DNA from: Pseudomonadota bacterium
Lineage (GTDB): Bacteria; Pseudomonadota; Alphaproteobacteria; Rhodobacterales; Rhodobacteraceae
Reading direction: 5' to 3'
Assembly: GCA_039029215.1 (NCBI GenBank)
Contig: JBCCGP010000005.1
Span: 4,721-68,720, forward strand
DNA length: 64,000 bases
Shown: piece by piece, positions 20,506 to 40,478 of the stretch
Position numbering within the stretch: the first letter of the stretch is position 1
Layout of the letters: every line of letters starts with the position of its first letter
Notes under the pieces: model-generated
What the model was told of the DNA's origin: nothing
What the model saw: the letters and a program-made list of their open reading frames with translations, nothing else
Database searches by the model: none
Translations under genes and position numbers: made by a program

Positions 20506-21015
20506 CTAATAAATATAACGGATTTGATCCGACCAATATCGTTCTATGTTGGTTAATGACCCATTGATATCGCGAACGGTTTGGTGATCGACAACGCCGC
20601 GCTCCGACATCCCATTTGCATGCCGTTCAAACAGATCACTGACAGTTTTGCGGATATTATATCCTTTTTCTGTCAATTTCACCCGAACCGCGCGCCGGTC
20701 AATTTCACATCTTTTGTGATGCATGTGCCCCGTCTCAACAAGTTTCTTCAGGTTATAGGACACATTGGACCCTTGATAGTAGCCGCGCGATTTCAGTTCG
20801 CCGGCGGTGACTTCGTTTTTTCCGATATTGAACAACAGAAGGGCCTGAACGGAATTTATCTCTAAAATACCCAACCGCTCAAATTCATCTTTGATCACAT
20901 CCAGCAAAAGCCGATGTAGTCGTTCTACTTTTGAAAGTGTTTCCAGATATTCGCCTAAAAAACTGACTTCTCCGATCATTCCCTGACCGGGATCTAGGCG
21001 TGGTTCTATGCTCAT
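20506..21015 (-). CDS. MarR-family winged-helix transcriptional regulator
   Basis: 169 aa with a wHTH core (VTAGELKSRGYYQGSNVSYNLKKLVETGHMHHKRCEIDRRAVRVKLTEKG). Confidence 0.7.
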   Translation of the reverse strand: MSIEPRLDPGQGMIGEVSFLGEYLETLSKVERLHRLLLDVIKDEFERLGILEINSVQALLLFNIGKNEVTAGELKSRGYYQGSNVSYNLKKLVETGHMHHKRCEIDRRAVRVKLTEKGYNIRKTVSDLFERHANGMSERGVVDHQTVRDINGSLTNIERYWSDQIRYIY

Positions 21016-23962: not shown

Positions 23963-24439
23963 CTAAACAGGCAATTTCATGGTCGCTTTGATCTCTTCCA
24001 TCGAAAGCAATGCGGTCACATTAAAAATCTTAACTTCAGAAATCAGAGCTTGATAAAATTCATCATAGGCTTTGGCATTGGCCACACGGACCTTTAAAAT
24101 ATAGTCAATTTCGCCTGCCAAACGGTGTGCTTCCAAGACCTCGTCACGTTCTTTGAGTGTGGCAAGAAACCTGTCCTGCCAATCGGCATCATGTTCCGAG
24201 GTGCGAATAAGGACAAAAAAACAGGCCTCTAATCCCAGTTTTTCAGGGTCAAGAACAACCGTTTCACTTTTAATAAGACCGCTGTCGCGCAGTTTGCGAA
24301 TACGATTCCAAACGGGCGTTTTTGAGGCACCGACCTTGCGTGCAATCTCGTCAAGGGATTGACCCGCATCTGCCTGCAATTCGCGAAGTATATTCCGATC
24401 TATTTGATCTAAAGGCACCATTGTTCCGCTTCCTGTCAC
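23963..24439 (-). CDS. lrp: Lrp/AsnC-family transcriptional regulator
   Basis: LDQIDRNILRELQADAGQSLDEIARKVGASKTPVWNRIRKL forms the HTH, followed by an AsnC-type ligand domain. It is divergent from the sulfate-assimilation operon. Confidence 0.88.
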   Translation of the reverse strand: MTGSGTMVPLDQIDRNILRELQADAGQSLDEIARKVGASKTPVWNRIRKLRDSGLIKSETVVLDPEKLGLEACFFVLIRTSEHDADWQDRFLATLKERDEVLEAHRLAGEIDYILKVRVANAKAYDEFYQALISEVKIFNVTALLSMEEIKATMKLPV

Positions 24440-24581: not shown

Positions 24582-24878
24582 ATGGCCCGCGCCTTCACAC
24601 CCAAAGTCTTAACAGCAAATCACCTGTTAGAAGGTGACGTGATCTATTGGGCAGATGGTGTATGGGTGCGTGCGCTTAAAGAAGCAGAGTTTTTCGATGA
24701 TGAGTTAACTGCGCAGGCCGCATTGGCCAAAGCGCAGGCACAGCCCGATATCGTGGTTGGTGCGTATTTAGCGGATGCAGCGCTTGAGGATGGCCATCCC
24801 GTTCCGACGCATTTCCGCGAAGACTTCCGGACCAAGGGCCCCTCAAACTATGCCCATGGCAAACAGGAGAGCCAGTAA
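24582..24878 (+). CDS. DUF2849-domain protein
   Basis: 98 aa (VLTANHLLEGDVIYW...). It sits immediately upstream of cysI, as is typical in alphaproteobacteria. Confidence 0.6.
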   Translation: MARAFTPKVLTANHLLEGDVIYWADGVWVRALKEAEFFDDELTAQAALAKAQAQPDIVVGAYLADAALEDGHPVPTHFREDFRTKGPSNYAHGKQESQ

Positions 24879-24879
24879 T

Positions 24880-26544
24880 ATGTATAGCTATTCTGAATTT
24901 GATAAAGCGTTCATCCAGACCCGCGTCGATCAATTTCGCGCCCAAGTGGAACGTCGGATCGATGGCAGCTTGACCGAAGATGAGTTCAAACCCCTGCGTT
25001 TGATGAATGGTCTGTATCTACAATTGCACGCTTATATGCTGCGCGTTGCGATCCCCTATGGGACGCTGAACAGCCAGAAAATGCGCCAACTGGCGATGAT
25101 TGCAGAAAAATGGGACAAGGGTTATGGCCATTTCACCACGCGGCAAAACATCCAATATAACTGGCCCAAACTGCGTGATGTGCCAGATATGCTGCAAGCA
25201 CTGGCCGATGTTGGGATGCATGCCATTCAAACATCCGGCAATTGTATCCGCAATGTGACGGCAGATCATTTTGCAGGCGCGGCAGCAGATGAATATGAAG
25301 ACCCCCGCCCGACAGCCGAATTGTTACGCCAATGGTCAACGGATCATCCAGAATTTGCATTTCTTGGTCGAAAGTTCAAAATCGCTGTTTCGGGCGCAGA
25401 ACATGACCGTGCAGTGACCAAAGCGCATGATATCGGCATTCGTATGGTCGATCAGGACGGCGAAAAGGGGTATGAAGTAATTGTCGGGGGCGGTCTTGGC
25501 CGCACACCGATGATCGGCAAGGTGCTTCGCGACTTTCTCCCTCGTGAAGACCTGTTGCCGTATTTAGAATCGATCCTGCAAGTTTATAACGTGCTGGGCC
25601 GTCGCGATAATAAATACAAAGCGCGCATCAAAATTACCGTGCATGAAAACGGGATCGAGACGATCCGCGATATGGTTGAGGCACGGTTTGATCTGCAAAA
25701 ACCGCTTTTCAAGGGGTTTGATCAAAAGCTGCTAAAAGAGATCGAGGCAGCTTTTGCGGCGCCTAACTATATCACAGCCTCTTTGAACGATTATGACAAG
25801 GCATATGCCACTGATCCGGCATTCCGTTCTTTCGTAGATACAAATATCACCGCGCATAAGAACCCAGACTATGCGATTGTGTCGATTTCGATCAAAAAAC
25901 ACGGTCAAACACCAGGCGATGCAACAGCAGATCAGATGCGCGCGATGGCGGATTTGGCAGAACACTACGCCCATGATGAGCTGCGCATTAGTCATGAGCA
26001 GAACGTGATTTTGCCCCATGTGCATAAATCCCATCTTTACGCGATTTATCAGGGGTTGAAGGCGGCTGATCTGGCGACAGCAAATATTGGGTTGATCTCT
26101 GACATTATCGCCTGCCCCGGTATGGATTATTGTGCGTTGGCCACGGCGCGTTCAATCCCGGTGGCGCAAGAGATTGCAACCCGATTTGAAGACTTGAAAA
26201 TCGAAAACGATATTGGTCCGCTGAAGATTAAAATATCGGGCTGTATCAACGCGTGTGGGCATCACCATGTCGGCCATATCGGTATTCTGGGGCTCGACCG
26301 GGCGGGTGTGGAAAATTATCAGATCACATTGGGTGGATCAGGTGCCGAAGACGCGACCATTGGCGAACGTGCCGGACCCGGTTTTGCCTATGATGACATT
26401 GTGGATGCGATTGAACGGATTATCCACACCTATTTGGAAATCCGATTGGATGCCGCGGAAGAATTCCTTGCCTGCTATCGCCGGGTTGGTGCAGCGCCGT
26501 TTAAAAGCGCGCTTTACCCCGAAGCCAAAGTGGCAGCCGAATAG
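24880..26544 (+). CDS. cysI: sulfite reductase hemoprotein (nitrite/sulfite reductase family)
   Basis: The start is MYSYSEFDKAF (ATG 24880, one nt after the DUF2849 stop). It has the siroheme/4Fe-4S cysteines CPGMDYC...CINACGHH and duplicated NIR_SIR domains. Confidence 0.88.
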   Translation: MYSYSEFDKAFIQTRVDQFRAQVERRIDGSLTEDEFKPLRLMNGLYLQLHAYMLRVAIPYGTLNSQKMRQLAMIAEKWDKGYGHFTTRQNIQYNWPKLRDVPDMLQALADVGMHAIQTSGNCIRNVTADHFAGAAADEYEDPRPTAELLRQWSTDHPEFAFLGRKFKIAVSGAEHDRAVTKAHDIGIRMVDQDGEKGYEVIVGGGLGRTPMIGKVLRDFLPREDLLPYLESILQVYNVLGRRDNKYKARIKITVHENGIETIRDMVEARFDLQKPLFKGFDQKLLKEIEAAFAAPNYITASLNDYDKAYATDPAFRSFVDTNITAHKNPDYAIVSISIKKHGQTPGDATADQMRAMADLAEHYAHDELRISHEQNVILPHVHKSHLYAIYQGLKAADLATANIGLISDIIACPGMDYCALATARSIPVAQEIATRFEDLKIENDIGPLKIKISGCINACGHHHVGHIGILGLDRAGVENYQITLGGSGAEDATIGERAGPGFAYDDIVDAIERIIHTYLEIRLDAAEEFLACYRRVGAAPFKSALYPEAKVAAE

Positions 26545-27291
26545 ATGCCGTTTGAACGCGCATTCGCCACCGTTGCCGAACGTGTAGAGCATCTGAATGA
26601 GACGTGGAAAAACCACGCTGCCATTCCGACCCTGCAATGGATTTTGCAGGACCCGAATGTCGGGCGCGTGGCCATGGTTTCGTCCTTCGGTGCAGAATCG
26701 GTGGTGCTGTTGCATATGGTTTCGCTGATCAATCCCGATCTGCCGATCCTGTTTATCGATACAGAAATGTTGTTTGAAGAAACGCTGGAGTATCAGCGCG
26801 AGGTCGCAGAAACGCTGGGTTTAAGTGATATTCGCGTTATTCGTGCAGATCGCGCTGCGGTGAAAAAGGCCGATCCATTTGGTCGGTTGCATTTGGCGCA
26901 GCCTGATCAATGCTGCCGCTTGCGCAAAACCCTGCCCTTGCAGCGTGCATTGACGGATTTTGATCTCTGGATTACGGGGCGCAAACGCTTTCAGGGCGCG
27001 GCGCGCGAAACGTTGGATTTGTTCGAGAATGAAAGCTATCTGCGGATCAAGATCAATCCGCTGGCCCATTGGCGGCGTGCGGATTTGCAGGATTATATCA
27101 TCAATAACCGCCTGCCCCAGCATCCGCTGGTGGCCCAAGGTTATCCCTCCATCGGATGTGCGCCAACGGTATGTACGCGCAAGGTTGCTACGGGCAACGA
27201 TCCACGCGCGGGACGTTGGGCGGGACGGAATAAAACAGAGTGCGGCATTCATTTCGGATTGGATGGCCAACCACAAAGGAGCGCGTCATGA
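26545..27291 (+). CDS. cysH: phosphoadenylyl-sulfate / adenylyl-sulfate reductase (thioredoxin-dependent)
   Basis: SFGAES is the PP-loop variant. The CC pair (DQCCRLRK) plus SIGCAPTVC suggests the Fe-S-containing APS-reductase type. The C-terminal ECGIH motif is present. Confidence 0.88.
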   Translation: MPFERAFATVAERVEHLNETWKNHAAIPTLQWILQDPNVGRVAMVSSFGAESVVLLHMVSLINPDLPILFIDTEMLFEETLEYQREVAETLGLSDIRVIRADRAAVKKADPFGRLHLAQPDQCCRLRKTLPLQRALTDFDLWITGRKRFQGAARETLDLFENESYLRIKINPLAHWRRADLQDYIINNRLPQHPLVAQGYPSIGCAPTVCTRKVATGNDPRAGRWAGRNKTECGIHFGLDGQPQRSAS

Positions 27292-27722
27292 GCGTGATTG
27301 TCACAGATACCGGATTTGCCAAAGACGATTGGATAGATGGGTTTCAGCCATGGGATGGCACGACGCTTTCAAATCAGGATCGAGATGCGGGTTATGCGAT
27401 TGATATGCCCAATGATGCGAACCCAGAAGATCTGCGCCCGTTTTTCAACGAGGCAGCGATGATCCGTGTGGCCTTTCCCTCCAGTGCGGATGGGCGCGGC
27501 TTTACGCTGGCGCGACATCTGCGTCTGATCGGGTTTCGCGGGCGTTTGCGTGCCTTTGGCCATGTCTTGGCTGATCAATATACAATGGCGCGGCGCTGTG
27601 GGTTTGATGAGGTTGAAATCTCTGACGAGATGGCAGCACGGCAGCCCGAAGAACAATGGTTATTCCGGGCGGATTGGCAAGCCCATGATTACCGCGCCAG
27701 ATTACAACAAACCGCCTCCTAG
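27288..27722 (+). CDS. DUF934-domain protein
   Basis: The ATG at 27288 has AAAGGAG upstream and an ATGA overlap with cysH. FPSSADGRGFTLARHLR...GHVLADQYTMARRCGFDEVEI is typical of DUF934. Confidence 0.7.
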   Translation: MSVIVTDTGFAKDDWIDGFQPWDGTTLSNQDRDAGYAIDMPNDANPEDLRPFFNEAAMIRVAFPSSADGRGFTLARHLRLIGFRGRLRAFGHVLADQYTMARRCGFDEVEISDEMAARQPEEQWLFRADWQAHDYRARLQQTAS

Positions 27723-27760
27723 ACGAAACGATGCATGCGCATTATTGAAAGATCGAAAAC

Positions 27761-28564
27761 ATGAATGAACAAGCAGCAATGACCAAAGCAAAACCTGTCC
27801 TTCCCGACGCCCAAACCGTAACGGCGGTTGAACATTATACAGATCGTCTGTTTCGATTTCGCGCGACACGGCCGCAATCCTTGCGGTTTCGCTCTGGCGA
27901 GTTTGTGATGATTGGCCTGATGGGGGATAATGACCGCCCGTTGCTGCGTGCTTATTCCATCGCATCACCTGCTTGGGATGACGAGTTGGAGTTTTATTCG
28001 ATTAAGGTCCAAGACGGTCCGCTGACCTCTAAGCTGCAAAATATTCAGGTGGGTGATGAGGTCATTATCCGGCCCAAACCTGTTGGTACTTTGGTGCTGG
28101 ATGCGCTGACACCTGGGAAACGGATGTATTTCTTTGCCACGGGTACTGGGATTGCACCCTTTGCCTCGCTGATCCGCGATCCGGACCTGTATGAGCGTTA
28201 TGACGAGGTTATCCTGACTCATACCTGCCGCGATGTCGCGGAACTCAAATATGGCGAGGATCTTGTCGCCAGTATAAAAGCGGACCCGTTAATCGGTGAA
28301 TTTGCGGATCAATTGAAATATTATCCCACGACAACCCGCGAAGAGAGCCCAAAAATGGGCCGGATCACCAAATTGATCGAAAATGGCGAGCTGTTTTCTG
28401 ATCTTGGCTTGCCGCCGCTTGATCCAGAGACAGACCGGGCGATGATCTGCGGCTCGATGGGGTTAAACACGGATGTCAAAGCGTTGTTGGAATCAGCAGG
28501 CTTGACCGAGGGATCAAACTCTATGCCTGCCGAATATGTGCTTGAGAAAGCATTCGTGGACTAG
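27761..28564 (+). CDS. fpr: ferredoxin--NADP(+) reductase
   Basis: 267 aa with RAYSIAS (FAD), GTGIAPF (NADP) and the bacterial subclass C-terminus. Confidence 0.88.
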   Translation: MNEQAAMTKAKPVLPDAQTVTAVEHYTDRLFRFRATRPQSLRFRSGEFVMIGLMGDNDRPLLRAYSIASPAWDDELEFYSIKVQDGPLTSKLQNIQVGDEVIIRPKPVGTLVLDALTPGKRMYFFATGTGIAPFASLIRDPDLYERYDEVILTHTCRDVAELKYGEDLVASIKADPLIGEFADQLKYYPTTTREESPKMGRITKLIENGELFSDLGLPPLDPETDRAMICGSMGLNTDVKALLESAGLTEGSNSMPAEYVLEKAFVD

Positions 28565-28589
28565 CGTCGGAACTTTTTTGACAAAATAT

Positions 28590-28626
28590 GCCCTGCGAAT
28601 TTGAAACAATTCGTAGGGCTTTTTTT
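28590..28626 (+). terminator. intrinsic terminator after fpr
   Basis: GCCCTGCGAATT-tgaaac-AATTCGTAGGGC forms a 12-bp stem with one G-U pair, followed by TTTTTTT. Confidence 0.8.
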
Positions 28627-28794
28627 CAATAAGCCAGCGATTTTTGCCCCTAAAAACCGATTTTTATAAAATCCTCTGACGAAGCTGTGAGCTAACGCGC
28701 CTGTGAGTGCCGTTTGTAGATTATCTCGGTTAATCACATCTCAACGCGGGGAGTTTCGCGTTTAAACCAGTAAATCAAAACCGAGGACTACTTC

Positions 28795-29094
28795 ATGTCA
28801 AAATCAGTTAAATCAGCAGCGGTCGCAGCAGCAGTTGCCGCGGCGATCACTTCAGTTGCAGCACCAGCATCAGCAGCAAACGTCAAATGCTACGGCATCG
28901 CACTTGCAGGCGAAAACGGTTGTGCGGCGGGCCCAGGTACATCTTGCGCGGGCACATCTACAGTTGATTACCAAGGCAATGCTTGGACAATCGTTTCTGC
29001 AGAAGAGTGTGAAAGCGCAGAATTGCCAGCAATGGCAGATGGGACGCCACGTATGGGTTCTGTAGAACCTCTTGACCGCGACCTACCAGCATAA
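28795..29094 (+). CDS. bufA: DUF2282 / BufA1-type bufferin precursor peptide (secreted, four Cys)
   Basis: It has a Sec signal ([14 protein letters not shown]) and the core [43 protein letters not shown] with four Cys in the canonical DUF2282 spacing. Confidence 0.85.
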
Positions 29095-29103
29095 GTTATG
29101 ATC

Positions 29104-29130
29104 AGGGCGGTACATCAGTGCCGCCCTTTT
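29104..29130 (+). terminator. terminator-like hairpin (probable attenuator) between the precursor and enzyme genes
   Basis: AGGGCGGTAC-atca-GTGCCGCCCT forms a 10-bp stem including one G-U pair, followed by TTT. It begins 10 nt after the bufA stop. Confidence 0.6.
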
Positions 29131-29147
29131 CAACTCGGGGACTAGAA

Positions 29148-29996
29148 ATGATACAGCTACCAAAAAGTATTGGTGTCGGATATAAATCCAAACATCGCGG
29201 CGATATCCTAAAAGATACAGCACAAATCGGGTGGCTGGAAATTCATGCAGAGAATTATATGGGCGACGGCGGGCGCCCAATTGCAGAGCTTAAAGAGCTT
29301 TCTGAAATATATCCCATTTCGTGTCATGGTGTTGGCCTGTCGATTGGGGCTGAAAGCGGATTGGATCCTGCGCATCTGGACCGATTGAAACATCTGATTG
29401 CGTGGCTGAAGCCTGCGCAATTTTCAGAACATCTGGCCTGGTCCACACATGGGGCACAGTTTTTGAATGATCTGTTGCCCCTGCCCTATACCGAAGAGGT
29501 TTTGGCGCGTGTGTCGGATCATATTAATCAGGTCCAAGATATATTGGGCCAGCGCATGCTGCTTGAAAATCCATCGCTTTATATCCAGTTCACCCAAAGC
29601 CAAATGCCGGAGACAGAATTTATTGCGCGCATTGTTGAAAACACGGGCTGTGGATTGCTGTTGGATGTGAACAATGTGTTCATCAGCGCGACCAACCAAG
29701 GATATAGTGCGAGAGGTTATATCGACGCCTATCCGCTAGACCATATTGGCGAATTGCATCTGGGTGGCCATGAAGAAGACACCGATGATGATGGCGACAC
29801 CTTACTGATTGACAGCCACTCGCGCGCAGTCGTTGATCCTGTCTGGGCGCTTTATGATTATGTTCTGTCGAAAACCGGACCTCGTCCGACTTTGATTGAA
29901 TGGGATAATGACATTCCCGATTGGTCCGTTTTGGCCCATGATGCGCATGCGGCAAAGGCGATCATGGACCGCCATGGCCGAGTTGCAGCAGAATAA
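29148..29996 (+). CDS. bufB: DUF692 multinuclear non-heme iron oxidase (MNIO, MbnB-like), BufB
   Basis: IGVGYKSKH...WLEIHAENYMG...HGVGLSIG...FSEHLAW...LLENPS...LLDVNN...ELHLGGH is the DUF692 TIM-barrel pattern. I chose the ATG at 29148 because the GTG at 29118 lies inside the hairpin. Confidence 0.85.
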   Translation: MIQLPKSIGVGYKSKHRGDILKDTAQIGWLEIHAENYMGDGGRPIAELKELSEIYPISCHGVGLSIGAESGLDPAHLDRLKHLIAWLKPAQFSEHLAWSTHGAQFLNDLLPLPYTEEVLARVSDHINQVQDILGQRMLLENPSLYIQFTQSQMPETEFIARIVENTGCGLLLDVNNVFISATNQGYSARGYIDAYPLDHIGELHLGGHEEDTDDDGDTLLIDSHSRAVVDPVWALYDYVLSKTGPRPTLIEWDNDIPDWSVLAHDAHAAKAIMDRHGRVAAE

Positions 29997-30733
29997 TGCA
30001 ACAGGAATTCACCACCAGCCTATTGGACCCCAAGGCACCTTTGCCAGAAGGCGTATCCGACCCAAACGGCAAACCAAGCCCAAAACGTTTTGCAGTCTAT
30101 CGAAATAATGTTGTGCATTCACTGATCGGTGCCCTGACGGATGCTTATCCCACGATCCGTGCTGATGTCGGCGCGGAATTTTTTGAAGCCATGGCGGGGC
30201 ATTTTGTGCGCAAACATCCGCCAAGCTCGCCCATGATGATGTTTTATGGTGCGGAGATGGGCGAATTTCTGCGCGAGTTTGCGCCCGTCGCAACGCGCCC
30301 CTATTTGGTAGATTTAGCGGCCTTAGAGGCGTTAATGCGCGGCATTTATCACAGTGCTGATGATCCAGTCTTTGATCCCGCGACGCTTGAGGGCATGGAG
30401 CCAGACGCACTGATGGCGATGCGCTTTGATTTTCGTGCCTCAGCTACACTTTTCCACTCGGATCATCAAGTTGGCTCAATTTGGATGTATCACAATCAAA
30501 ACAATGGTTTACCATCCGAAGCAGGGACGGAATATATGCTGATTACGCGGCCTGCCTTAGATGTCGGCCTTTATATGCTGAGCGAAGCGCAATTTGGGTT
30601 TTTTACCAAACTTCGCATCGGGGAAACCTTGGGCGATGCTTTCGAGGCGGCGCAAGCCATTGAGACGGAATTTGACCTTGGCGCAGCCCTAGGCATCGCG
30701 TTTCAAACAGCCTGTTTTTCACATACCAAATAG
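29996..30733 (+). CDS. bufC: DUF2063-domain partner protein, BufC
   Basis: 245 aa. RFAVYRNNVVHSLIGAL...AYP is the DUF2063 signature. It has a TAATG overlap with bufB. Confidence 0.8.
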   Translation: MQQEFTTSLLDPKAPLPEGVSDPNGKPSPKRFAVYRNNVVHSLIGALTDAYPTIRADVGAEFFEAMAGHFVRKHPPSSPMMMFYGAEMGEFLREFAPVATRPYLVDLAALEALMRGIYHSADDPVFDPATLEGMEPDALMAMRFDFRASATLFHSDHQVGSIWMYHNQNNGLPSEAGTEYMLITRPALDVGLYMLSEAQFGFFTKLRIGETLGDAFEAAQAIETEFDLGAALGIAFQTACFSHTK

Positions 30734-30742
30734 GGGACAAAA

Positions 30743-31276
30743 ATGGACAAAATCAGACAGTTGAATGCCGCACTGACGGCACCTTTGCAGAAAATACCAG
30801 AGGGTATCTTGCCGTTACTGGCACGCATCGCCTTTGCGGCAGTATTGCTGAAATATTTCTGGGGATCCGCGATGACAAAACTTGGTGATGGGATCGGTGG
30901 AATTTTTGCGCTGAACCCAAATGCCTATTTCCAGATGTTTCCAAAAGCGATGGAAGCGGCTGGGTTTGATCCATCCGGCCTGTCTGTGATCCATAAATTG
31001 ATTGCCCTGGCAGGCACTTGGGGTGAATTTGTGCTACCCGCGCTTATTCTTGTTGGTCTGTTCTCGCGCCTTGCGGCCCTGGGCATGATGGCTTTCGTCG
31101 CCGTCCAAACCTATGTTGACGTCACAGGACATGGCGCAGAGTTTGGGGCGTGGTTTAACAACCAATCGGGCGAGCTGATCGCGGATCAACGTCTGCTGTG
31201 GTATCTGTTATTTGCCATTTTGCTGATCAAAGGCGGTGGCCTTCTGTCCGTCGATCGCGCGCTTAAAATCGACTGA
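30743..31276 (+). CDS. DoxX-family inner-membrane protein
   Basis: 177 aa with four TM helices and DoxX-like LLARIAFAAVLLKYFW...GEFVLPALILVGLFSRLAALGM. Confidence 0.75.
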   Translation: MDKIRQLNAALTAPLQKIPEGILPLLARIAFAAVLLKYFWGSAMTKLGDGIGGIFALNPNAYFQMFPKAMEAAGFDPSGLSVIHKLIALAGTWGEFVLPALILVGLFSRLAALGMMAFVAVQTYVDVTGHGAEFGAWFNNQSGELIADQRLLWYLLFAILLIKGGGLLSVDRALKID

Positions 31277-31291
31277 CGCGAAAAACCTTGC

Positions 31292-31327
31292 ACATCAGCG
31301 CCATAGCGGATTGAGTGGCGCTGATGT
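31292..31327 (+). promoter_or_regulatory. 11-bp perfect inverted repeat spanning the epimerase start codons
   Basis: ACATCAGCGCC (31292-31302) pairs with GGCGCTGATGT (31317-31327) across a 14-nt loop. The right arm contains the GTG at 31315 and the ATG at 31324. Confidence 0.6.
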
Positions 31328-32262
31328 CTGTGATGACCACCCATAAAGGCCCCAATGGAGCGGATTATAGCCCGGCGGCGCTGCGTGCTGGTGATTTGGA
31401 AATTGGTGTGCTGAGTTTTGGTGCGCGCACGATGTATATCCGCCATCGCGGTAAAGATTTGATCCTGGGCTATCCTGATCCGGCGGCGTATTTTACCGAT
31501 CCGTTTTATATTGGTGCGATTGTTGGGCGTGTCGCAAATAGATTGGCGAATAGTCGGATTACAATCGATGGTAAAACCTATCCGCTGACAGCTAATGAGG
31601 GGACTAAGCAGTTGCATGGGGGACCGGGTGGCGTTTCTCAGGTGGTGTGGGATATGGAGCCGCTGGAGACGGGGAAAAACGGTGTAAAGTTGACATATAG
31701 CTCGCCTGATGGCGATCAGGGGTATCCGCATGATGTCCGCTTTGAGGTCGAGGTTGCGCTGTCAGAGACGGGTTTGACCTATCACATGCGCGCCATGCCA
31801 TCCGCGCCGACAGCGATCAATATGGCACAGCATAATTATTACAGCCTTGGTCCGCTGGGTGATGCGCGGCTAACCGTGCCAGCGGCGCGCTATACGCCGG
31901 TGGATGGTGATCAAATCCCGACCGGGGATTATGCGGATGTGGATGGCGATATGTTTGACTATCGCACCGGCGCGCCTGTGCATCCAGATATCGATCATAA
32001 TTTGGTTTTGGATGGGGCTGAGAGCGCAATTGTCTATGAAAATGATACCCATCAGTTGACGTTGCATTGTGATCAACCGGGGATACAGGTCTATTCCGGT
32101 TCGGGATTGGAGCCGCCGTTCGCGCCGTTTCAAGGCATTTGTCTGGAACCACAACTTTTTCCAAACGCTTTTAATCAGGAGGGGTTTGATGCGCCTTTAG
32201 CAACGCCTGAGGCGCCTTACGAGCAAATTCTGAGAATCGATATCGCGGCGAAAGTGCGTTAA
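31324..32262 (+). CDS. aldose 1-epimerase family protein
   Basis: GRVANRLANSRITIDGKTYPLTANEGTKQLHGGPGG and QGICLEPQ are mutarotase motifs. The start is ambiguous (GTG 31315, ATG 31324 or 31333). Confidence 0.8.
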   Translation: MSVMTTHKGPNGADYSPAALRAGDLEIGVLSFGARTMYIRHRGKDLILGYPDPAAYFTDPFYIGAIVGRVANRLANSRITIDGKTYPLTANEGTKQLHGGPGGVSQVVWDMEPLETGKNGVKLTYSSPDGDQGYPHDVRFEVEVALSETGLTYHMRAMPSAPTAINMAQHNYYSLGPLGDARLTVPAARYTPVDGDQIPTGDYADVDGDMFDYRTGAPVHPDIDHNLVLDGAESAIVYENDTHQLTLHCDQPGIQVYSGSGLEPPFAPFQGICLEPQLFPNAFNQEGFDAPLATPEAPYEQILRIDIAAKVR

Positions 32263-33635: not shown

Positions 33636-35189
33636 CTAGCCTTTGGCCAGATAGGCGTCAATTTTCTTGATCTGATCACGCGTCAAGTGCAACCCCAAAC
33701 GCGACCGCCGCCAAACGAAATCATCCGCCGTTTCAACAAACTCATGGACTTTGACCCAATCAAGCTCAGGTGCATATATCCCATGGGCAATCTTCTTAGG
33801 TGTGTCTGATCCCTCAAAAATCTTGAACGCATCTGTGCCATAATGGGTGATCAGCCGATTGGCTGTACGCTCATCCAAAAAAGTATATTTTTTACGAAGT
33901 TTTTCGATGAGTTTTGGACGTGTGAAAGCAGCAAAATCACCGCCCGGAAGCGGCGCATTTGCGGTCCATTTCGGACGCGGGCGCCCGAATTCAGCATCAA
34001 TCAACTTCAAAGCGCTTTCCGCCAATTTGCGAAATGTTGTGATTTTACCGCCGAAGATATTCAAAACCGGCGCATCCTGCGTTTTATTCATCTTCAACAC
34101 ATAATCCCGCGTCAAGGCAGAGGCATTTTGCGCCCCATCATCATAAAGCGGACGCACGCCAGAATAGGTCCAGACTATATCGGCCTTGGTGATCGGTGTT
34201 TCAAAATACTGATTTGCGAAATTTAGCAAATAGTCCTGTTCCTCTGGCGTGCAAACAGGTTTTTGATCTGGGGCATGATGGGCCATATCGGTGGTGCCGA
34301 TCAGGGTAAAATCGCCCTCATAGGGGATTGCGAAAATAATGCGTCCATCGGTCCCTTGGAAAAAATAGGCTTTGTCATGGGGGTAATGCCGTTTGACAAC
34401 CAAATGTGAGCCCCGCACCAAACGCGTGTTTTCATTGGTTTTCAGCCGCAAGCGCCCATGGATCACATCCCCTACCCATGGGCCCGCCGCATTCACAATC
34501 ATGCGTGCCTTGACGGTTTTGGTGTTACCATCGCGCCCGTCTGTTAGTGTGATGGTCCAAATCCCATTGGTTGCGGTTGCGGTTTCTACCTTTGTACGTG
34601 TCTCGATCTGCGCACCACGTTGAGCCGCGTCGCGCGCATTCAGCACCACCAGGCGCGAATCCTCCACCCAGCCGTCAGAATATTCAAACGCTTTGCGGTA
34701 TTTGTCTTGAAGCGGCACGCCTTCGGGCGTGTTCGCAAGGCGTATCGTGCGTGTTTTGGGCAGCCGACTGCCCCACCCGGCCATTGCATCGTATAAGAAC
34801 AAGCCCAACCGGATTAGCCAATTCGGTCTGCGTCCCCGCATCCATGGCATCACCCAACCCAGCAGCTTAGAGCTGGGCGTGGTGCTGTCAAATCGCATGT
34901 CTTTATGCAACGGCAGTACAAAGCGCATTGGCCAGCTGATATGGGGCATATTGCGCAATAGTATATCCCGTTCGCGCAATGCCTCTTTGACGAGGCGAAA
35001 TTCGAAATATTCCAGATAGCGTAGCCCACCATGAAAGAGTTTGGTTGAGCTTGAGGATGTCGCCTGCGCCAGATCATCTTTTTCGGCCAAATAAACCGAA
35101 TATCCCCGCCCCGCCGCATCACGCGCAATGCCACAGCCATTTACACCGCCGCCGATAATCAAGAGATCGAAAATTTCAGTGTCAGACAT
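33636..35189 (-). CDS. glpD: FAD-dependent glycerol-3-phosphate dehydrogenase
   Basis: The start is MSDTEIFDLLIIGGGVNGCGIARDAAGRG (GxGxxG). The C-terminal helical domain of GlpD is present. The upstream 62 codons of the track ORF are treated as non-coding. Confidence 0.88.
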   Translation of the reverse strand: MSDTEIFDLLIIGGGVNGCGIARDAAGRGYSVYLAEKDDLAQATSSSSTKLFHGGLRYLEYFEFRLVKEALRERDILLRNMPHISWPMRFVLPLHKDMRFDSTTPSSKLLGWVMPWMRGRRPNWLIRLGLFLYDAMAGWGSRLPKTRTIRLANTPEGVPLQDKYRKAFEYSDGWVEDSRLVVLNARDAAQRGAQIETRTKVETATATNGIWTITLTDGRDGNTKTVKARMIVNAAGPWVGDVIHGRLRLKTNENTRLVRGSHLVVKRHYPHDKAYFFQGTDGRIIFAIPYEGDFTLIGTTDMAHHAPDQKPVCTPEEQDYLLNFANQYFETPITKADIVWTYSGVRPLYDDGAQNASALTRDYVLKMNKTQDAPVLNIFGGKITTFRKLAESALKLIDAEFGRPRPKWTANAPLPGGDFAAFTRPKLIEKLRKKYTFLDERTANRLITHYGTDAFKIFEGSDTPKKIAHGIYAPELDWVKVHEFVETADDFVWRRSRLGLHLTRDQIKKIDAYLAKG

Positions 35190-35209
35190 GAGGTATTTAC
35201 TGCGAAAAG

Positions 35210-35339
35210 GGTTCGATTTGCCCCGCTCTACCCTGTTCCGAAACAAGGTTAAATGGGCGGATTGGCAATTTACCCAACGATCTTTGCTGCATACTCTATA
35301 GCGTGATAAATTTAAGGTCGTAAGAACAGGTTCGATTTG
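35210..35339. repeat. two copies of an 11-bp direct repeat GGTTCGATTTG in the glpD / permease divergent intergenic region
   Basis: The copies lie at 35210-35220 and 35329-35339 and I verified them base by base. Confidence 0.7.
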
Positions 35340-35434
35340 TATAAATTTCTTGCTTTTTAACATAAATTTCCCCACTGTTTGCGCAGGCGCAGCATGAAAA
35401 ACGCAAGACTGCGCGAGCAGCTATAGAGGGAAAA

Positions 35435-36745
35435 ATGGCTAATATTGATTATTCGAGTGCGGATTCCATGCCGCCAATCGGACAAGCTGTGCCGCTTGGA
35501 TTGCAACATGTTTTGGCAATGTTTGCATCTAACGTCACACCGTCCATCATCGTTGCAGGCGCCGCGGGGCTTGCCTTTGGCTCAATCGAGCAGGTCTATC
35601 TGATCCAGATGGCCATGCTGTTTGCGGGCATTGCAACATTGTTTCAAACCATCGGCTTTGGTCCAGTGGGCGCACGTTTGCCGATTATGCAAGGAACATC
35701 CTTTGCTTTTGTCGGTGTGCTTGCGGGTGTGGCCGCAACACAAGGCTTGGGCGTGGCCCTGACCGCCTGTTTGATCGGGGGGATTATTCACACGCTTCTG
35801 GGCGGTGTGATCCAGCACCTACGGTTCCTGTTTCCACCCCTTGTGACAGGTTTGGTGATCTTGGCGATTGGTCTTTATCTGTTGCCGGTTGCGATCAAAT
35901 ATTCCGCAGGTGGGGCCGCGAAATTCCAGATGGAGGCTGAAAGCTTCGGGTCTTTGATGCACTGGTCGGTTGCGCTGACGGTTGTTGTTGTCTCACTTAT
36001 CTGTACCTTCTTTGGGCGCGGATTGATCCGCACAGCAGCCATTTTGATCGGTTTGATCGCGGGTTACGCGCTGGCCTATGTGATGGGTATGGTGAATTTC
36101 GGCGCGGTTGGCAAAGCTGGCTGGTTCTCTGGTCTGCAAGTCATGCCTTACGGCTTTGAATTCTCGCTGGGTGCGGTGATTGCGGTCACGCTTGTCTCAA
36201 TTGTTTCGGCGATTGAAACGGTCGGTGACGCCTCTGCGACAACCAAGGCAGGTGCAGGACGCGATGCAACGGACAAAGAAATCTCGGGCGCGACCTATGC
36301 TGATGGTTTGGGCACAGCGGTTGCTGCGGTCTTTGGCGGTCTGCCAAATACGTCCTTCAGCCAGAATGTGGGCATTGTCGGCATGACCGGCATCATGAGC
36401 CGCAAGGTCGTCGCCATTGGTGGTTTGATCCTTGTGATATGTGGTCTGTTGCCGAAAATTGGTGCTGTCATCGCATCGATGCCGCTGCCGGTTCTTGGTG
36501 GTGGTGTGATCGTGATGTTCGGTATGGTTGCGGCCGCGGGCATTAAGATGCTGACAGAAACGCCGATCAATCGTCGCAATATGATCATCATCTCGGTCTC
36601 GCTTGCCTTTGGTCTAGGTCTGAACCTTGTGCCGACAGCGGTGCAATATCTGCCAGGGGTTCTGCAAACGCTGGCCACATCAGCCGTTGCGCCTGTGGCT
36701 TTGGTTGCGGTTATTCTCAACCAAATCCTGCCGCAAGAAGACTAA
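35435..36745 (+). CDS. nucleobase:cation symporter-2 (xanthine/uracil permease) family transporter
   Basis: 436 aa with about 12-14 TM helices. NCS2-like motifs QHVLAMFASNVTP and SFSQNVGIVGMTG are present. Confidence 0.85.
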   Translation: MANIDYSSADSMPPIGQAVPLGLQHVLAMFASNVTPSIIVAGAAGLAFGSIEQVYLIQMAMLFAGIATLFQTIGFGPVGARLPIMQGTSFAFVGVLAGVAATQGLGVALTACLIGGIIHTLLGGVIQHLRFLFPPLVTGLVILAIGLYLLPVAIKYSAGGAAKFQMEAESFGSLMHWSVALTVVVVSLICTFFGRGLIRTAAILIGLIAGYALAYVMGMVNFGAVGKAGWFSGLQVMPYGFEFSLGAVIAVTLVSIVSAIETVGDASATTKAGAGRDATDKEISGATYADGLGTAVAAVFGGLPNTSFSQNVGIVGMTGIMSRKVVAIGGLILVICGLLPKIGAVIASMPLPVLGGGVIVMFGMVAAAGIKMLTETPINRRNMIIISVSLAFGLGLNLVPTAVQYLPGVLQTLATSAVAPVALVAVILNQILPQED

Positions 36746-36761
36746 ACAACGACACATATGG

Positions 36762-36793
36762 GTCGGCGCTGCTTGCGCCGACTCATTTTTTTT
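36762..36793 (+). terminator. intrinsic terminator after the NCS2 permease
   Basis: GTCGGCGC-tgctt-GCGCCGAC is followed by TCATTTTTTTT. Confidence 0.75.
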
Positions 36794-36882
36794 GCCTAGA
36801 ATAAGCTTATGTCCCCGCGCGCTTTACGGCACATCGGGCGCAGTTGGGACACAAAAGCAACAGAAGGTGCCGGACGCTTGCG

Positions 36883-38244
36883 ATGGATATAGAGTTTCTT
36901 CTGAACGGAGAACCTGTCGCGTTAACAGACATCAATCCTTATGAAACGGCGCTGGATTTCTTGCGCCTGCGCAAATCGCTGACGGGCACAAAAGAGGGCT
37001 GCAACGAAGGTGATTGCGGCGCCTGTACGGTGATGGTCACTGGCGCCTGCGGGCATCGGGCGTTGAACGCCTGTATTTTGTTTTTGCCCCAGCTTCATGG
37101 ACAGGCCTTGCGGACCGTGGAAGGGTTGGGTGGTGATCATCCGGTACAGAATGCGATGATCGAGCATCACGGCAGTCAATGCGGGTTTTGTACGCCGGGT
37201 TTTGTCATGTCGATGGCCACCGCACATGCGAATGATGCAACCGATTATGATGATCAATTGGCGGGCAATCTGTGCCGTTGTACAGGTTACGCGCCGATTA
37301 TCCGCGCGGCAGAGGCCTGCGAGGGTGCTGCAAAACCCGATTGGCTCGCATCAGATTTGGCGTGGGTTGAGAATTTTGAAGCTGCGTCCAAACCCACCCT
37401 GCCCAGCACAATCGATGAATTTGCGCACTATTACGCTAATAACCCCGATACACAGCTGATCAGTGGTGCAACCGATGTTGGGCTTTTGGTGACAAAGCAA
37501 CTGCGCGATTTACCGCAGCCGATTTTCCTAAAACAAATCAAAGGCTTCGATGCCGTCTTTAAAGCGCCTGATGGGATCACGATCATGGGCGGTACGTCCG
37601 CGACAGATGTGTTGAATGCGGTGGCTGAGGATTATCCGAGTTTCGCCGAACTTCTGCGCCGCTATGGGTCCGTGCAAGTGCGCAATGCGGGCACAATCGG
37701 CGGCAATATCGCAAATGGGTCCCCAATCGGCGACAGCCCGCCGGCCCTGATCGCGCTTGGCGCGCAGCTGACCTTGCGCAAGGCAGATCAGCGCAGAGTG
37801 ATCGCACTGGAAGATTTCTTTATCGATTACGGAAAGCAAGATCGCGCGGCAGGTGAATTTGTCGAAAGCATCTTAATTCCCAAACAAGCGGGTCGGTTGA
37901 AATGCTACAAAATCTCCAAACGCTTTGATCAGGATATTTCTGCGCTTTGCGGCTGTTTTAATATCTCAGTTGAAGATCAAAAGATTAAGCACGCCCGCAT
38001 CGCTTTTGGCGGTATGGCCGCCATTCCAAAACGCGCCACAGCGACCGAAGCGGCGCTGATCGGACAACCCTATTCCGAAGAGACGATGCGTGCCGCTATG
38101 ACAGCGCTTGCGCAGGATTTCGACCCGATTACCGATATGCGCGCCACTGCCGCGTATCGCATGAAAGCGGCGCAAAACCTGTTGCTGCGTGTCTATTTAG
38201 AAGATCAAGACGCGCTGGTGCCATTGCTGGACATTGCGCCATGA
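36883..38244 (+). CDS. xdhA: xanthine dehydrogenase small subunit (2Fe-2S + FAD domains)
   Basis: The start is [11 protein letters not shown]. It has [12 protein letters not shown] and CGFCTPG...CRCTGY Fe-S motifs followed by an FAD-binding domain. Confidence 0.9.
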
Positions 38245-40478
38245 GTATCGGTGCTAAACCACATGACGCCGCCCTGCTTCATGTGTCCGGTCGGGCGCAA
38301 TATACGGATGACTTGCCCGAAAGCGCGGGCACATTGCACCTTGCCTTTGGCTTGGCGACAATTGCGCATGGGCGCTTTACCGAACTCGATTTGTCCCGCG
38401 TTAATGCTGCCCATGGGGTTGTCCGCGTTCTGACAGCGAGAGACATTCCTGGCACAAATGATGGTGGTGCAGTGGCCCATGATGAACCGGTGCTTAGCGA
38501 AGGTGACATCAAATTTCACGGGCAACCTTTGTTTGCAGTCATTGCCGACACGCATTTAAACGCCCGCAAAGCCGCGCGTTTGGCCGATGTCACCTACACA
38601 GAGAAACCCGCGATCTTGACCATGGATCAGGCCATCGCGGATGCTGAATTGCTGGAAGACCCGATCGTTTACAAAACGGGCGATGCAAAGGTCGCGATAA
38701 ACGCTGCCACCCGTCACCTGGCTGGACAAGTCGAAATGGGGGGGCAAGAGCATTTTTATCTTGAAGGTCACGCGGCCTATGCGCTGCCCCAAGAAAATGG
38801 GGATATGTTGGTCCATTGCTCGACCCAGCATCCCACTGAAATTCAACATAAAGTTGCCGAAAGCTTGAACCTACCGTTCAATGCTGTACGCGTGGAAACA
38901 CGCCGGATGGGTGGTGGGTTTGGCGGCAAAGAAAGTCAACCCAATCACCTTGCCATCATCTGCGCGGTTGCAGCACATCACACTGGGCGCCCGTGCAAGC
39001 TGCGCTATGATCGTGATGATGATTTTGTTCTGACCGGTAAACGGCATGATTTCCGCGTGAATTACGAGGTTGGGTTCGACACGGATGGGCGCATCCAAGG
39101 CGTTGTTATGGATCACCATATCCGCTGCGGATGGACCCAAGACTTGTCACTTGCCATTGCGGACCGCGCGCTTTTGCATTCTGACAATGCCTATCACCTG
39201 CCTGCGGTGCATCTGACATCTTATCGCTATCGCACGAATATGGTCTCGGCCACAGCCTTTCGCGGCTTTGGCGGGCCGCAAGGCATGTTCGCGATTGAGC
39301 GCATAATTGAGGATATCGCACGTCATTTGGACTGTGATCCGATGGATGTGAGGCGGGTGAATTTTTATCAGAACGGCCAAAAAACCCATTATGGGATGAC
39401 GATTGAGGACAGTGTTTTGGACCAGCTTTGCGCCGCGTTGGTTGAAACAAGTGATTATCAGAAGCGACGTGCGCAGATTGAAACAGAAAATAAGCAAAAC
39501 GCCATCCTAAAACGCGGCATCGCGCTGACGCCTGTGAAATTCGGCATCAGCTTCACACTGACGCAACTTAATCAGGCCGGTGCCTTGGTGCATATTTATG
39601 CGGATGGTTCGGTGCATCTTAATCACGGCGGCACAGAGATGGGTCAGGGCTTGTATATCAAGGTCGCACAAGTCGCCGCCAAAGAATTTGGCATACCGCT
39701 GGAACAAATAAAAATCTCAGCTGCCGACACGGCTAAGGTTCCAAATACATCGGCGACCGCTGCCTCCTCCGGCTCTGATATGAACGGCATGGCGGTCAAG
39801 GCGGCCTGTCAGACGATCAAAGATAGGCTGGCAGATTTGCTGCGCACGGAATGGGGTTGTAGCGCAGCACCTGTGTTCGATGGTGGAATGGTTCGCGCGG
39901 GTGATCAGGACATCAGCTTTGCCGATCTGGCAGGGCTGGCCTGGTCCAAGCGTATCTCGCTGTCATCCACTGGATTTTACGCCACACCCAAAATCGAATG
40001 GGACAGGTTTAAGGGGCGCGGACGTCCGTTTTATTATTTCGCCTATGGCGCGGCCTGTTCCGAGGTTGTTGTTGATACGCTGACAGGTGAATACAAAATC
40101 CTGCGCACAGATATTTTGCATGACGTTGGAAACAGCTTAAATCCAGCAATAGATATCGGCCAGATCGAGGGCGGATTTGTGCAAGGTGCGGGCTGGTTGA
40201 CGACTGAGGAATTGGTTTGGGATGATCAAGCGCGGCTTCGAACGCATGCGCCCAGCACGTATAAAATCCCCGCTTGTTCGGATCGGCCCGATATTTTCAA
40301 AGTGACGCTCTATGACAATGAAAATAAGGAGGAGACGATCTATCGCTCCAAGGCCGTTGGTGAACCGCCCTTTATGCTGGGGATCTCGGTTCTGTCCGCG
40401 CTCAGCCATGCAATTGGCAAACCTTTGGATGCGCCTGCGACATTTGAGCGGGTTTTGATGACTTACGAGGGTGCGTAA
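38241..40478 (+). CDS. xdhB: xanthine dehydrogenase molybdopterin-binding subunit
   Basis: 745 aa with [17 protein letters not shown] and AVGEPP motifs. It has an ATGA overlap with xdhA. Confidence 0.92.

Follow-up and report, generated by a model that had tools for sequence, protein, structure and literature searches.

Bufferins constitute the largest described MNIO-RiPP family. In the founding Buf1 bufferin system, buf1ABCD of Caulobacter vibrioides (CCNA_03363-03366; CC3254-CC3257), only CysII and CysIII of the precursor are converted to 5-thiooxazoles, CysI and CysIV being joined in a disulfide (PMC11626156). Its four-gene core is the standard Buf1 organisation (PMC12452194). The same DUF2282/DUF692/DUF2063/DoxX architecture is found in the gig (gold-induced genes) operons of Cupriavidus metallidurans and Legionella pneumophila (PMC11626156), which are known from metal-induction transcriptomics, whereas the Rhodobacterales version described here is known from sequence alone. 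Oxazolin/HvfABC (Buf_EGKCG) and the fontiphorin/gonophorin "captophorins" likewise combine an MNIO with a DUF2063-type partner that acts on the cysteines of a signal-peptide precursor to give a Cu-binding product, but the oxazolin/HvfABC and captophorin precursors carry EGKCG repeats and not the DUF2282 fold. Methanobactin MbnABC also relies on an MNIO and a partner to make a Cys-derived copper-binding heterocycle, and MbnB and MbnC are detectable structural relatives; in contrast, the short leader-core peptide MbnA is secreted to take up copper and yields an oxazolone/thioamide.

Gene content and family membership

We analysed a stretch of DNA of 64,000 nucleotides (the window), in which four tightly packed same-strand genes had been predicted to form a bufferin (gig-like) system. 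The original prediction comprised a 99-aa Sec-exported precursor with four cysteines in the DUF2282/BufA1 spacing, a DUF692 (MbnB-like) enzyme, a DUF2063 partner gene joined to it by a TAATG overlap and a DoxX-family membrane protein, and it named profile-HMM searches against these four families as a check. An open reading frame check recovered four closely spaced ORFs at window positions 28795-31276 (+), and Pfam and NCBIfam searches placed all four above the curated profile thresholds, so that every family assignment held. The genes lie on one strand in the compact order A-B-C-D, with the DoxX gene fourth as in Buf1, and the bufA/bufB, bufB/bufC and bufC/bufD gaps measure 53, -1 and 9 nt.

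The second gene, bufB (29148..29996, +), encodes an MNIO (DUF692) bufferin maturase of 282 aa. It matches PF05114 MbnB_TglH_ChrH (E 1.1e-103) and scores 366.7 bits on the NCBIfam equivalog NF050167 MNIO_BufB (cut-off 310); it falls under the cut-offs for HvfB, ApyH, MbnB and ChrH, and all other MNIO equivalogs were likewise below threshold. Its relatives in the PDB are 3bww (E 1e-36), TglH and MbnB. Translation most likely starts at ATG 29148, the codon from which the gene is called on an identical public contig; a GGGGA Shine-Dalgarno sequence and the alignment to the HMM point the same way. A start at GTG 29118 is unlikely and was rejected because this codon is located within the stem of a strong hairpin.

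The third gene, bufC (29996..30733, +), encodes a DUF2063 partner of 245 aa with a C-terminal RRE-like domain, and it is translationally coupled to bufB through the TAATG junction, a 1-nt overlap at 29996. Residues 1-92 match PF09836 DUF2063 (E 9.1e-25). A PDB search by sequence returned nothing for BufC, but its AF2 model is confident (pLDDT 94.2), with a C-terminal beta-strand/helix domain, and the best Foldseek matches are MNIO partners: TglI of TglHI (8hci_A, E 1e-6) and NGO1945 (3dee, E 3e-3). Weaker matches were obtained to the RRE proteins TbiB1, McbB and MbnC. After 9 nt, with a GGGGA Shine-Dalgarno sequence, follows bufD (30743..31276, +), encoding a DoxX-family membrane protein of 177 aa; it passes the PF07681 DoxX model only barely (26.9 bits, cut-off 23.6) and shows three clusters of strongly hydrophobic 19-residue windows.

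The block is widely shared. We found bufABCD, in this order and with bufD in fourth place, in 77 of 80 species-representative genomes, nearly all of them Rhodobacterales. By its predicted gene content the locus is thus an ordinary one, sharing its four-gene operon with hundreds of marine Rhodobacterales, and the operon is near-universal in a group that ranks among the most abundant marine bacteria. As annotation it adds little, standard pipelines already naming the genes. What is new here is a conserved upstream DNA site, putatively for control, and a conserved RNA hairpin 3' of the peptide gene; the rest is already familiar.

The neighbouring families were set apart by their models. For oxazolin/HvfABC(X), the precursor encoded here has no EGKCG repeats and scores fell short for HvfB (236 vs 360), HvfC (41 vs 142) and HvfX (18 vs 80). 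For methanobactin, BufB reached 59.6 bits against the MbnB cut-off of 325, and the window contains no MbnA-like ORF. For Buf2 (Buf_6/12Cys), the precursor has four cysteines rather than six or twelve and scores 22.3 bits on NF050166 BufA2 (cut-off 60). Each of the sequence-level membership comparisons that we ran supported assignment to the bufferin-type RiPPs. We conclude that the locus is, with good probability, orthologous to the Buf1-type operon for bufferin biosynthesis, its copper-chelating role being carried over by analogy from Caulobacter.

The precursor and its predicted maturation

The precursor gene bufA (28795..29094, +), preceded by the Shine-Dalgarno sequence GAGGA (28783-28787, +), encodes a 99-aa BufA1/DUF2282 protein with a Sec-type signal peptide and a 72-aa core. 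The product matches PF10048 DUF2282/BufA1 (E 2.3e-18, 66.3 bits, cut-off 22.4). We retrieved 6925 homologues, the closest named of which is a "BufA1 family periplasmic bufferin-type metallophore", and orthologues about 70% identical are already named BufA1 by NCBI and UniRef. The four cysteines at 32, 43, 51 and 72 are separated by 11, 8 and 21 residues, the same gaps as in Caulobacter BufA1, in which the core cysteines stand at 12, 23, 31 and 52 (PMC11626156). Besides these gaps, the locus shares with Caulobacter buf1 the gene order, the DUF2282 Sec precursor, the NCBIfam BufB equivalog, DUF2063 and DoxX. All 118 BufA homologues compared have C32, C43 and C72, and 90% or more of them have C51.

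The signal peptide was judged by eye, with an n-region carrying K3 and K6 and an Ala/Val-rich h-region at 8-22 (Kyte-Doolittle up to 2.0); ASA|A obeys the -3/-1 rule, and cleavage likely occurs at ASA|AN, after residue 27. The older Pfam description of DUF2282 as an "integral membrane protein" was dropped because the signal peptide is the sole hydrophobic part of BufA. A PDB search by sequence found no relative of BufA. Its AF2 model is of low confidence (pLDDT 59.6), and this low-confidence model places CysI in a strand (29-33) and CysIV in a helix (69-74), in agreement with the published description of the fold.

The core is 72 aa long here compared to 68 aa in Caulobacter, and 27 residues follow CysIV compared to 16. 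The original prediction regarded this tail as specific to the locus; the count of 27 was correct, but over its whole length the tail aligns with more than 100 BufA1 proteins from Rhodobacterales, among which P78, G83, R86, G88, R95, D96 and P98 do not vary, while 90% or more keep L77, D82, S89, E91 and L93. Its length is also typical, the median among 113 four-Cys DUF2282 cluster representatives being 23 (quartiles 18-32).

By analogy with Caulobacter, BufB and BufC would oxidise Cys43 and Cys51 to 5-thiooxazoles in the cytoplasm. The modified BufA would then be exported by Sec and its signal peptide cut after Ala27, a Cys32-Cys72 disulfide would form, and the 72-residue product would be retained in the periplasm, where it may chelate excess copper. 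The predicted conversion of cysteines to 5-thiooxazoles, proposed from homologues, is thereby narrowed: it applies to CysII and CysIII and not to all four residues, CysI and CysIV forming the disulfide in the characterised protein (PMC11626156). The modified residues could instead be oxazolone-thioamide pairs, the structure originally put forward for oxazolin/HvfA and methanobactin. Such pairs are made by MNIO relatives such as MbnB, and the available parts of two reports state that oxazolone-thioamide and thiooxazole are isobaric and hard to tell apart (PMC11252979; 10.64898/2026.06.05.730506). Yet NMR assigned 5-thiooxazoles in Caulobacter Buf1 (PMC11626156), later work, in the text available, supports thiooxazoles in bufferins and in a Haemophilus protein (10.64898/2025.12.15.693703, PMC13097082, 10.64898/2026.07.17.739211), and BufB matches the bufferin maturase model and lies well under the MbnB cut-off. 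We therefore consider oxazolone-thioamide pairs very improbable here and retain 5-thiooxazoles as the expected modification.

A role other than copper buffering was also weighed, in which the gene content is as described and the operon serves another metal or an oxidative, chlorine or sulfur stress, DoxX being stress-linked. Gold, cadmium and other metals induce gig operons and BvgAS, a virulence control, governs the one in Bordetella (PMC11626156), while MerC-bufferin fusions and DoxX have been discussed as hints of other stresses (PMC12452194). In this group, moreover, the copper-responsive SigF/NrsF control appears to be replaced by a different system (see below), and an ArsC-family gene lies downstream of the operon in many relatives. 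Against this, the sole functional data for a DUF2282 bufferin are copper induction, copper binding by thiooxazoles and protection from copper (PMC11626156), and the residues around the modified-type cysteines are nearly invariant between BufA here and the family. A non-copper role thus seems unlikely, if not negligibly so, and copper chelation remains our preferred reading.

The upstream region and transcriptional control

The gap between fpr and bufA spans 230 nt (28565-28794). The operon begins, as had been predicted, downstream of the fpr terminator, in which a T7 tract comes after a 12-bp stem (28590-28619). Beyond this terminator the bufA leader holds a conserved putative operator with a -10-like TA at a conserved distance, together with a small hairpin and the Shine-Dalgarno sequence.

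The putative operator lies at 28676..28709 (+), where CTGACGAAGCTGTGAGCTAACGCGCCTGTGAGTG is the window version of the clade consensus cTgACGgnnncGTGAnnCACGgcCnCGTGAgTgG. It is composed of two tandem T(G/C)ACG-N4-CGTGA palindromes, with the 29-bp consensus T(G/C)ACG-N4-CGTGA-N2-CACG-N4-CGTGA, and in the clade of the window the GTGA elements stand one base further apart than in that consensus. The motif occurs in 59 of the 80 species loci with fixed spacing, and a scan of both strands of ~987 kb found it solely upstream of bufA. Among the closest metagenomic relatives of the window it is the best-conserved block of the leader, and the +1 spacing is common to them. No second copy was found within the 64-kb window, one of the patterns used having a spacing that differs from that of the window copy. 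A metagenome scan with CAC-N6-YGTGA (the consensus being CAC-N5-YGTGA) returned 105 matches, all without buf genes and either unrelated or due to chance, and is uninformative on the regulon. A literature search turned up nothing relevant on how roseobacters regulate their DUF2282/DUF692 genes.

Downstream of the operator, TAATCA at 28731..28736 (+) is a putative -10 element, inferred from its position, with its TA 25-26 nt past the second GTGA. As a hexamer this candidate is weak. Of 52 non-redundant loci, 30 have a TAnnnT that begins 25-27 nt beyond the second GTGA and 41 have a TA there; the TA is conserved in close relatives, and its offset equals that of TAnnnT in relatives.

Caulobacter buf1 adjoins sigF-nrsF and has a promoter of the SigF consensus GTAACC-N16-CGAA (PMC3511200), whereas the window locus has neither an adjacent ECF sigma and NrsF pair nor this promoter and carries the double-palindrome operator instead. 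Within the 64-kb window, none of the 20 non-overlapping ORFs in the size range of about 112-223 aa was recognised as an ECF sigma or NrsF, and a SigF-type promoter is absent from the bufA leader even at 2 mismatches. Throughout the clade, an NrsF-like neighbour was seen at 4 of 77 loci. Five loci carry GTAACA-N16-CGAA, all of them without the operator; NrsF was detected next to two of the five, and one (L049) also adjoins an ECF sigma. In these sequences the putative operator and the SigF-type promoter are mutually exclusive across loci. The Caulobacter regulatory model is thus not transferable to this Rhodobacterales group.

These comparisons also bear on what had been presented, with the precursor tail, as three locus-specific features. 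The lack of an adjacent sigma/anti-sigma pair is real but is the norm in the clade, and the 230-bp leader, described as of unknown regulation, has the length given but contains conserved elements; by clade comparison none of the three is peculiar to the locus.

The conserved upstream motif might instead represent the -35 and -10 elements recognised by an alternative sigma factor of the ECF type, its gene lying elsewhere in the genome. Bufferin operons elsewhere in bacteria are ECF-dependent, the motif has AC-rich and CGT-containing elements like many ECF promoters, and the downstream half-site GTGAgTgG is asymmetrically longer than the upstream one. The motif is nevertheless palindromic and scores on both strands at one site, its four half-sites stand about one helical turn apart, unlike a two-element promoter, and a separate TAnnnT hexamer follows at a fixed 25-27 nt. 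Its blocks are 10, 15 and 25 nt apart, compared to the usual ECF promoter spacer of 16-17 nt. On this evidence we regard a sigma-factor site as quite unlikely and favour a transcription-factor operator. In the latter case, bufA would be transcribed from a sigma-70-type promoter with a poor -35, and the 29-bp double palindrome, at about -67 to -38 and hence against the -35 region, would be bound by a transcription factor encoded elsewhere, substituting in this clade for the SigF/NrsF control of Caulobacter.

RNA hairpins and precursor stoichiometry

A small hairpin, AACGCGGG-GAGU-UUCGCGUU, may form in the 5' leader at 28743..28762 (+), the fold of 28716-28800 having -18.1 kcal/mol and a z of -2.1. 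Close relatives have different hairpins at the same position. As a clade-wide element it is only partly supported, with a median leader z of -0.8, and we treat it as minor because only 21 of 80 leaders have a z below -2. An Rfam scan of 28400-31500 at permissive E-values gave two chance-level matches only, and hence no known riboswitch or sRNA in this interval.

The spacer between bufA and bufB contains a GC-rich hairpin, AGGGCGGUAC-AUCA-GUGCCGCCCU followed by UUU (29104..29130, +), with -22.9 kcal/mol and a z of -3.9; none of 200 shuffles was as stable. Similar hairpins, unrelated in sequence, occur at 78 of 80 loci with a median of -22.7 kcal/mol, and in close relatives the stem sequences differ while pairing is kept. 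Of 80 bufA-bufB spacers, 45 fall below an MFE z of -2; the corresponding numbers are 0 of 64 for the bufC-bufD gaps and 7 of 80 for coding controls. At least 4 T follow the hairpin in just 16 of 80 loci, and therefore most copies are not canonical intrinsic terminators.

The paper that founded the bufferin family makes no mention of the hairpin in its main text. Stem-loops follow the small precursor gene in other RiPP operons, such as microcin C (mccA-mccB), lantibiotic and lasso-peptide clusters, and these precursor-enzyme hairpins probably yield surplus precursor transcript. The bufA-bufB hairpin resembles them as a stable stem-loop between a small precursor gene and the maturation genes; the bufferin copies mostly lack a U-tract, and termination and RNA stabilisation are both possible. 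It is likely an attenuator or a transcript-stabilising element, which directly after bufA would either attenuate read-through or stabilise a short bufA transcript. Either effect would leave the precursor in excess over the BufB, BufC and BufD proteins.

Taken together, we tentatively propose, at somewhat less than even confidence, that marine Rhodobacterales have swapped SigF/NrsF control for an undescribed dedicated regulator acting at the 29-bp double palindrome that abuts the -35 region, and that the clade-wide hairpin after bufA sets the precursor-to-enzyme ratio. If true, the replacement of the regulator would point to an abundant group of ocean bacteria having a new sensor of metal or of periplasmic stress. 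The putative operator offers a concrete DNA site with which to seek this regulator, and the hairpin is a candidate control of precursor stoichiometry.

A further hairpin, perfect over 13 bp and lacking a U-tract, lies 3' of the bufD stop at 31292..31327 (+), with -25.7 kcal/mol, a z of -3.2 and a stability matched by none of 200 shuffles. This hairpin may mark the end of the operon. Its 3' arm overlies the first ATG of the aldose-1-epimerase gene.

A textbook Buf1 operon

Four consecutive ORFs lie on the forward strand where the original prediction placed them, and Pfam assigned each to the family proposed: the precursor gene bufA (28795-29094, 99 aa; PF10048 DUF2282/BufA1, E 2.3e-18), the gene of the DUF692-type MNIO enzyme bufB (29118 or 29148-29996; PF05114 MbnB_TglH_ChrH, E 1.1e-103), its DUF2063 partner bufC (29996-30733, 245 aa; PF09836, E 9.1e-25) and the DoxX gene bufD (30743-31276, 177 aa; PF07681, 26.9 bits, cut-off 23.6). 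BufB scored 366.7 bits on the NCBIfam MNIO_BufB equivalog, above the trusted cut-off of 310, and stayed under the NCBIfam cut-offs for HvfB, ApyH, MbnB and ChrH. The predicted TAATG junction of bufB and bufC and the predicted fpr terminator (12-bp stem and T-run, 28590-28619) were both seen in the sequence; 9 nt separate bufC from bufD. For bufB, a GGGGA Shine-Dalgarno sequence 7 nt 5' of ATG 29148, the choice of the gene caller on the identical public contig and the start of the HMM alignment agree and point to ATG 29148 (282 aa); the alternative GTG 29118 falls within a strong hairpin, in its 3' arm. No paralogues of the buf genes were seen elsewhere within the 64-kb window.

In Caulobacter, the precursor encoded by buf1ABCD is a DUF2282 protein of 80-120 residues with a Sec signal peptide and four Cys (CysI to CysIV) at core positions 12, 23, 31 and 52; BufB with BufC turns CysII and CysIII into 5-thiooxazoles, a disulfide joins CysI and CysIV, and the resulting peptide is a periplasmic copper binder (PMC11626156). 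The Cys of the window BufA (residues 32, 43, 51 and 72) have exactly the Caulobacter BufA1 spacing of 11, 8 and 21, as predicted. The N-terminal signal peptide, judged by inspection (K3/K6, Ala/Val-rich core, ASA|A), is the sole hydrophobic stretch of the protein, leaving a predicted mature core of 72 residues. The AF2 model of BufA is of low confidence (pLDDT 59.6), with strands at 29-33 and 64-68 and a helix at 69-74; as in the published fold, the first strand contains CysI and the short helix CysIV. BufC was modeled with high confidence (pLDDT 94.2), and its top structural match is TglI, the partner of the MNIO TglH (8hci_A, E 1e-6), followed by the DUF2063 protein NGO1945 (3dee, E 3e-3) and, more weakly, the RRE proteins TbiB1, McbB and MbnC. 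Solved relatives of BufB are the DUF692 protein 3bww, TglH (the DUF692 component of TglHI, 8hci) and MbnB. By sequence and by fold, then, nothing that defines a Buf1 cluster is missing from the operon, and at this level its reading as a bufferin-type operon holds. By analogy with Caulobacter, copper binding and thiooxazole chemistry would be expected of it.

A conserved module with changing neighbors

BufA has 6925 homologues at E ≤0.001; the best 120 of these are nearly all from Rhodobacterales, 99-102 aa long and 60-90% identical over full-length alignments, and several are already called “BufA1 family periplasmic bufferin-type metallophore”. One genome per species was scanned, which yielded >560 confirmed loci; the best 80 were kept. 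The order bufA-bufB-bufC-bufD is found in 77 of these 80, the remaining three being contig fragments, and in a Shimia MAG (L059, 6001-6732) bufA is duplicated in tandem ahead of bufB. Directly upstream of buf in the window lies a sulfate-assimilation block, cysI-cysH-DUF934-fpr (24775-28564; sulfite reductase, PAPS reductase, DUF934, ferredoxin-NADP reductase), otherwise found only in an Amylibacter MAG (L027) and two Neptunicoccus genomes (L041, L071); in most of the other genomes, buf is preceded by thrS and followed by an ArsC-family gene. This gene order places the source of the window within Rhodobacterales, close to Amylibacter. It also shows buf to be a chromosomal module that is itself conserved but whose neighbors vary across the clade. 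Operons like that of the window are present in most marine Rhodobacterales, and a routine annotation would give the genes their names.

The 27 residues beyond the last Cys of BufA had been proposed as specific to this locus. Among 1.84 billion cluster representatives, searched exhaustively, 694 relatives were found; among the best 150, the 113 with a canonical four-Cys core have a median of 23 residues after CysIV (quartiles 18-32), so the length is typical. The tail is also conserved clade-wide, with P78, G83, R86, G88, R95, D96 and P98 invariant and L77, D82, S89, E91 and L93 at least 90% conserved in 118 sequences. The C-terminal motif hydrophobic-x-R-D-hydrophobic-P, present in 23 of the 113 four-Cys relatives, marks a sub-family, not a peculiarity of the locus; it may serve as a fold element or in recognition by the enzyme.

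The absence of a sigma/anti-sigma pair was correctly predicted for the window, where neither an ECF sigma nor NrsF was found among the ORFs of 112-223 aa, all of which were checked. It does not set the locus apart, an NrsF-like gene adjoining buf in only 4/77 loci. Two of these four neighbors were confirmed by Pfam, one with an adjacent ECF sigma; ECF sigma and NrsF adjoin the operon in L049, and NrsF does in L065. A family survey treats the four genes as the cluster core and sigma/NrsF as accessory to some Buf1 clusters (PMC12452194).

A putative operator or a SigF-type motif in the leader

The Caulobacter SigF promoter is GTAACC-N16-CGAA (PMC3511200). When up to one mismatch was allowed and the 16-nt spacing kept, the motif was found, as GTAACA-N16-CGAA, ahead of bufA in five loci (L008, L023, L032, L049 and L065) and in 0/80 control coding windows. 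Unlike Caulobacter buf1, the window leader has no such motif, even allowing two mismatches, and carries a double palindrome instead, a block absent from all five SigF-motif loci.

This putative operator emerged from a 160-nt upstream alignment as a conserved block, with GTGA-N11-GTGA within 200 nt of the bufA start in 39 loci, and an iterated weight matrix found it, at fixed spacing, in 59/80. Its clade consensus, nTcACannnnCTgACGgnnncGTGAnnCACGgcCnCGTGAgTgG, comprises two tandem 14-bp palindromes, T(G/C)ACG-N4-CGTGA, with centers 15 bp apart, and an additional weaker half-site upstream. A scan of both strands of all fetched DNA and the entire window (987 kb) returned 64 matches, every one upstream of a bufA gene; dyad symmetry follows from reverse-strand matches falling on the same sites. 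At the tandem-bufA locus L059, the operator precedes the first copy only. Of 52 non-redundant loci, 30 have a TAnnnT hexamer that begins 25-27 nt past the second GTGA, and 41 have TA there; this fixed offset places the operator upstream of a -10 element, where it would span about -67 to -38 and abut a poor -35 (TgG). The window copy, CTGACGAAGCTGTGAGCTAACGCGCCTGTGAGTG (28676-28709), carries an additional base separating the GTGA elements. The same spacing is seen in its nearest metagenomic relatives (precursors 82-92% identical), whose leaders are best conserved over the operator; a conserved TA follows it at the expected offset.

The leader, carrying so widespread an element, is not particular to this locus, and taken together the tail, the missing sigma pair and the leader do not amount to locus-specific oddities. 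We infer that orthologous buf operons are under two alternative control systems, SigF-type or operator-type, and that the window operon is of the latter type, with a putative DNA-binding regulator. Compared with the bufferin papers cited here, a conserved operator in place of SigF control appears to be new.

The remaining 5' UTR of ~50 nt contains a small hairpin (28743-28762); across the clade, structures of this sort are over-represented without being universal. In Yoonia/Loktanella-group loci (e.g. L002, L006, L007 and L050), leader hairpins 30-50 nt before bufA share CATCGCC-loop-GGCGAT, which could be a second protein-binding palindrome, not an RNA structure. Several genera (L036, L038, L048, L041, L071, L027 and others) have an aaTTGTTACAa box ~20-40 nt upstream of the operator, absent from the window; its opposite strand reads GTAACA, resembling the SigF -35. 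The sole small regulators in the window, all on the minus strand, are of the AsnC/Lrp (23963-24439), MarR (20506-21015) and Rrf2 (53231-53692) families; none adjoins buf or has an operator copy nearby.

Hairpins within and after the operon

The bufA-bufB spacer contains a GC-rich stem-loop with a 10-bp stem followed by UUU (29104-29127; -22.9 kcal/mol, z -3.9). A comparable hairpin of unrelated sequence is present in 78/80 loci (median -22.7 kcal/mol), and between close relatives pairing is kept though the stems differ. Spacers folded >2 sd better than dinucleotide shuffles in 45/80 loci, against 0/64 for the bufC-bufD gap and 7/80 coding controls; at least four T follow the hairpin in only 16/80 loci. 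In other RiPP operons, a comparable element gives precursor message in excess of enzyme message. The spacer hairpin may likewise act as an attenuator or transcript stabilizer, such that precursor message would exceed enzyme message. The founding paper on bufferins does not mention it in its main text (PMC11626156), and relative to that text the clade-wide hairpin would, by comparison of the loci, be new.

Directly after the bufD stop, a perfect 13-bp hairpin without a U-tract (31292-31327; -25.7 kcal/mol, z -3.2) includes in its 3' arm the first ATG (31324) of the aldose-1-epimerase gene, and could therefore end the buf transcript, mask the start codon, or both. Further downstream (33636-40478) come a glycerol-3-phosphate dehydrogenase-like DAO gene on the minus strand, a permease for xanthine/uracil and a xanthine dehydrogenase encoded by two genes, an ordinary purine-catabolism context unrelated to buf.
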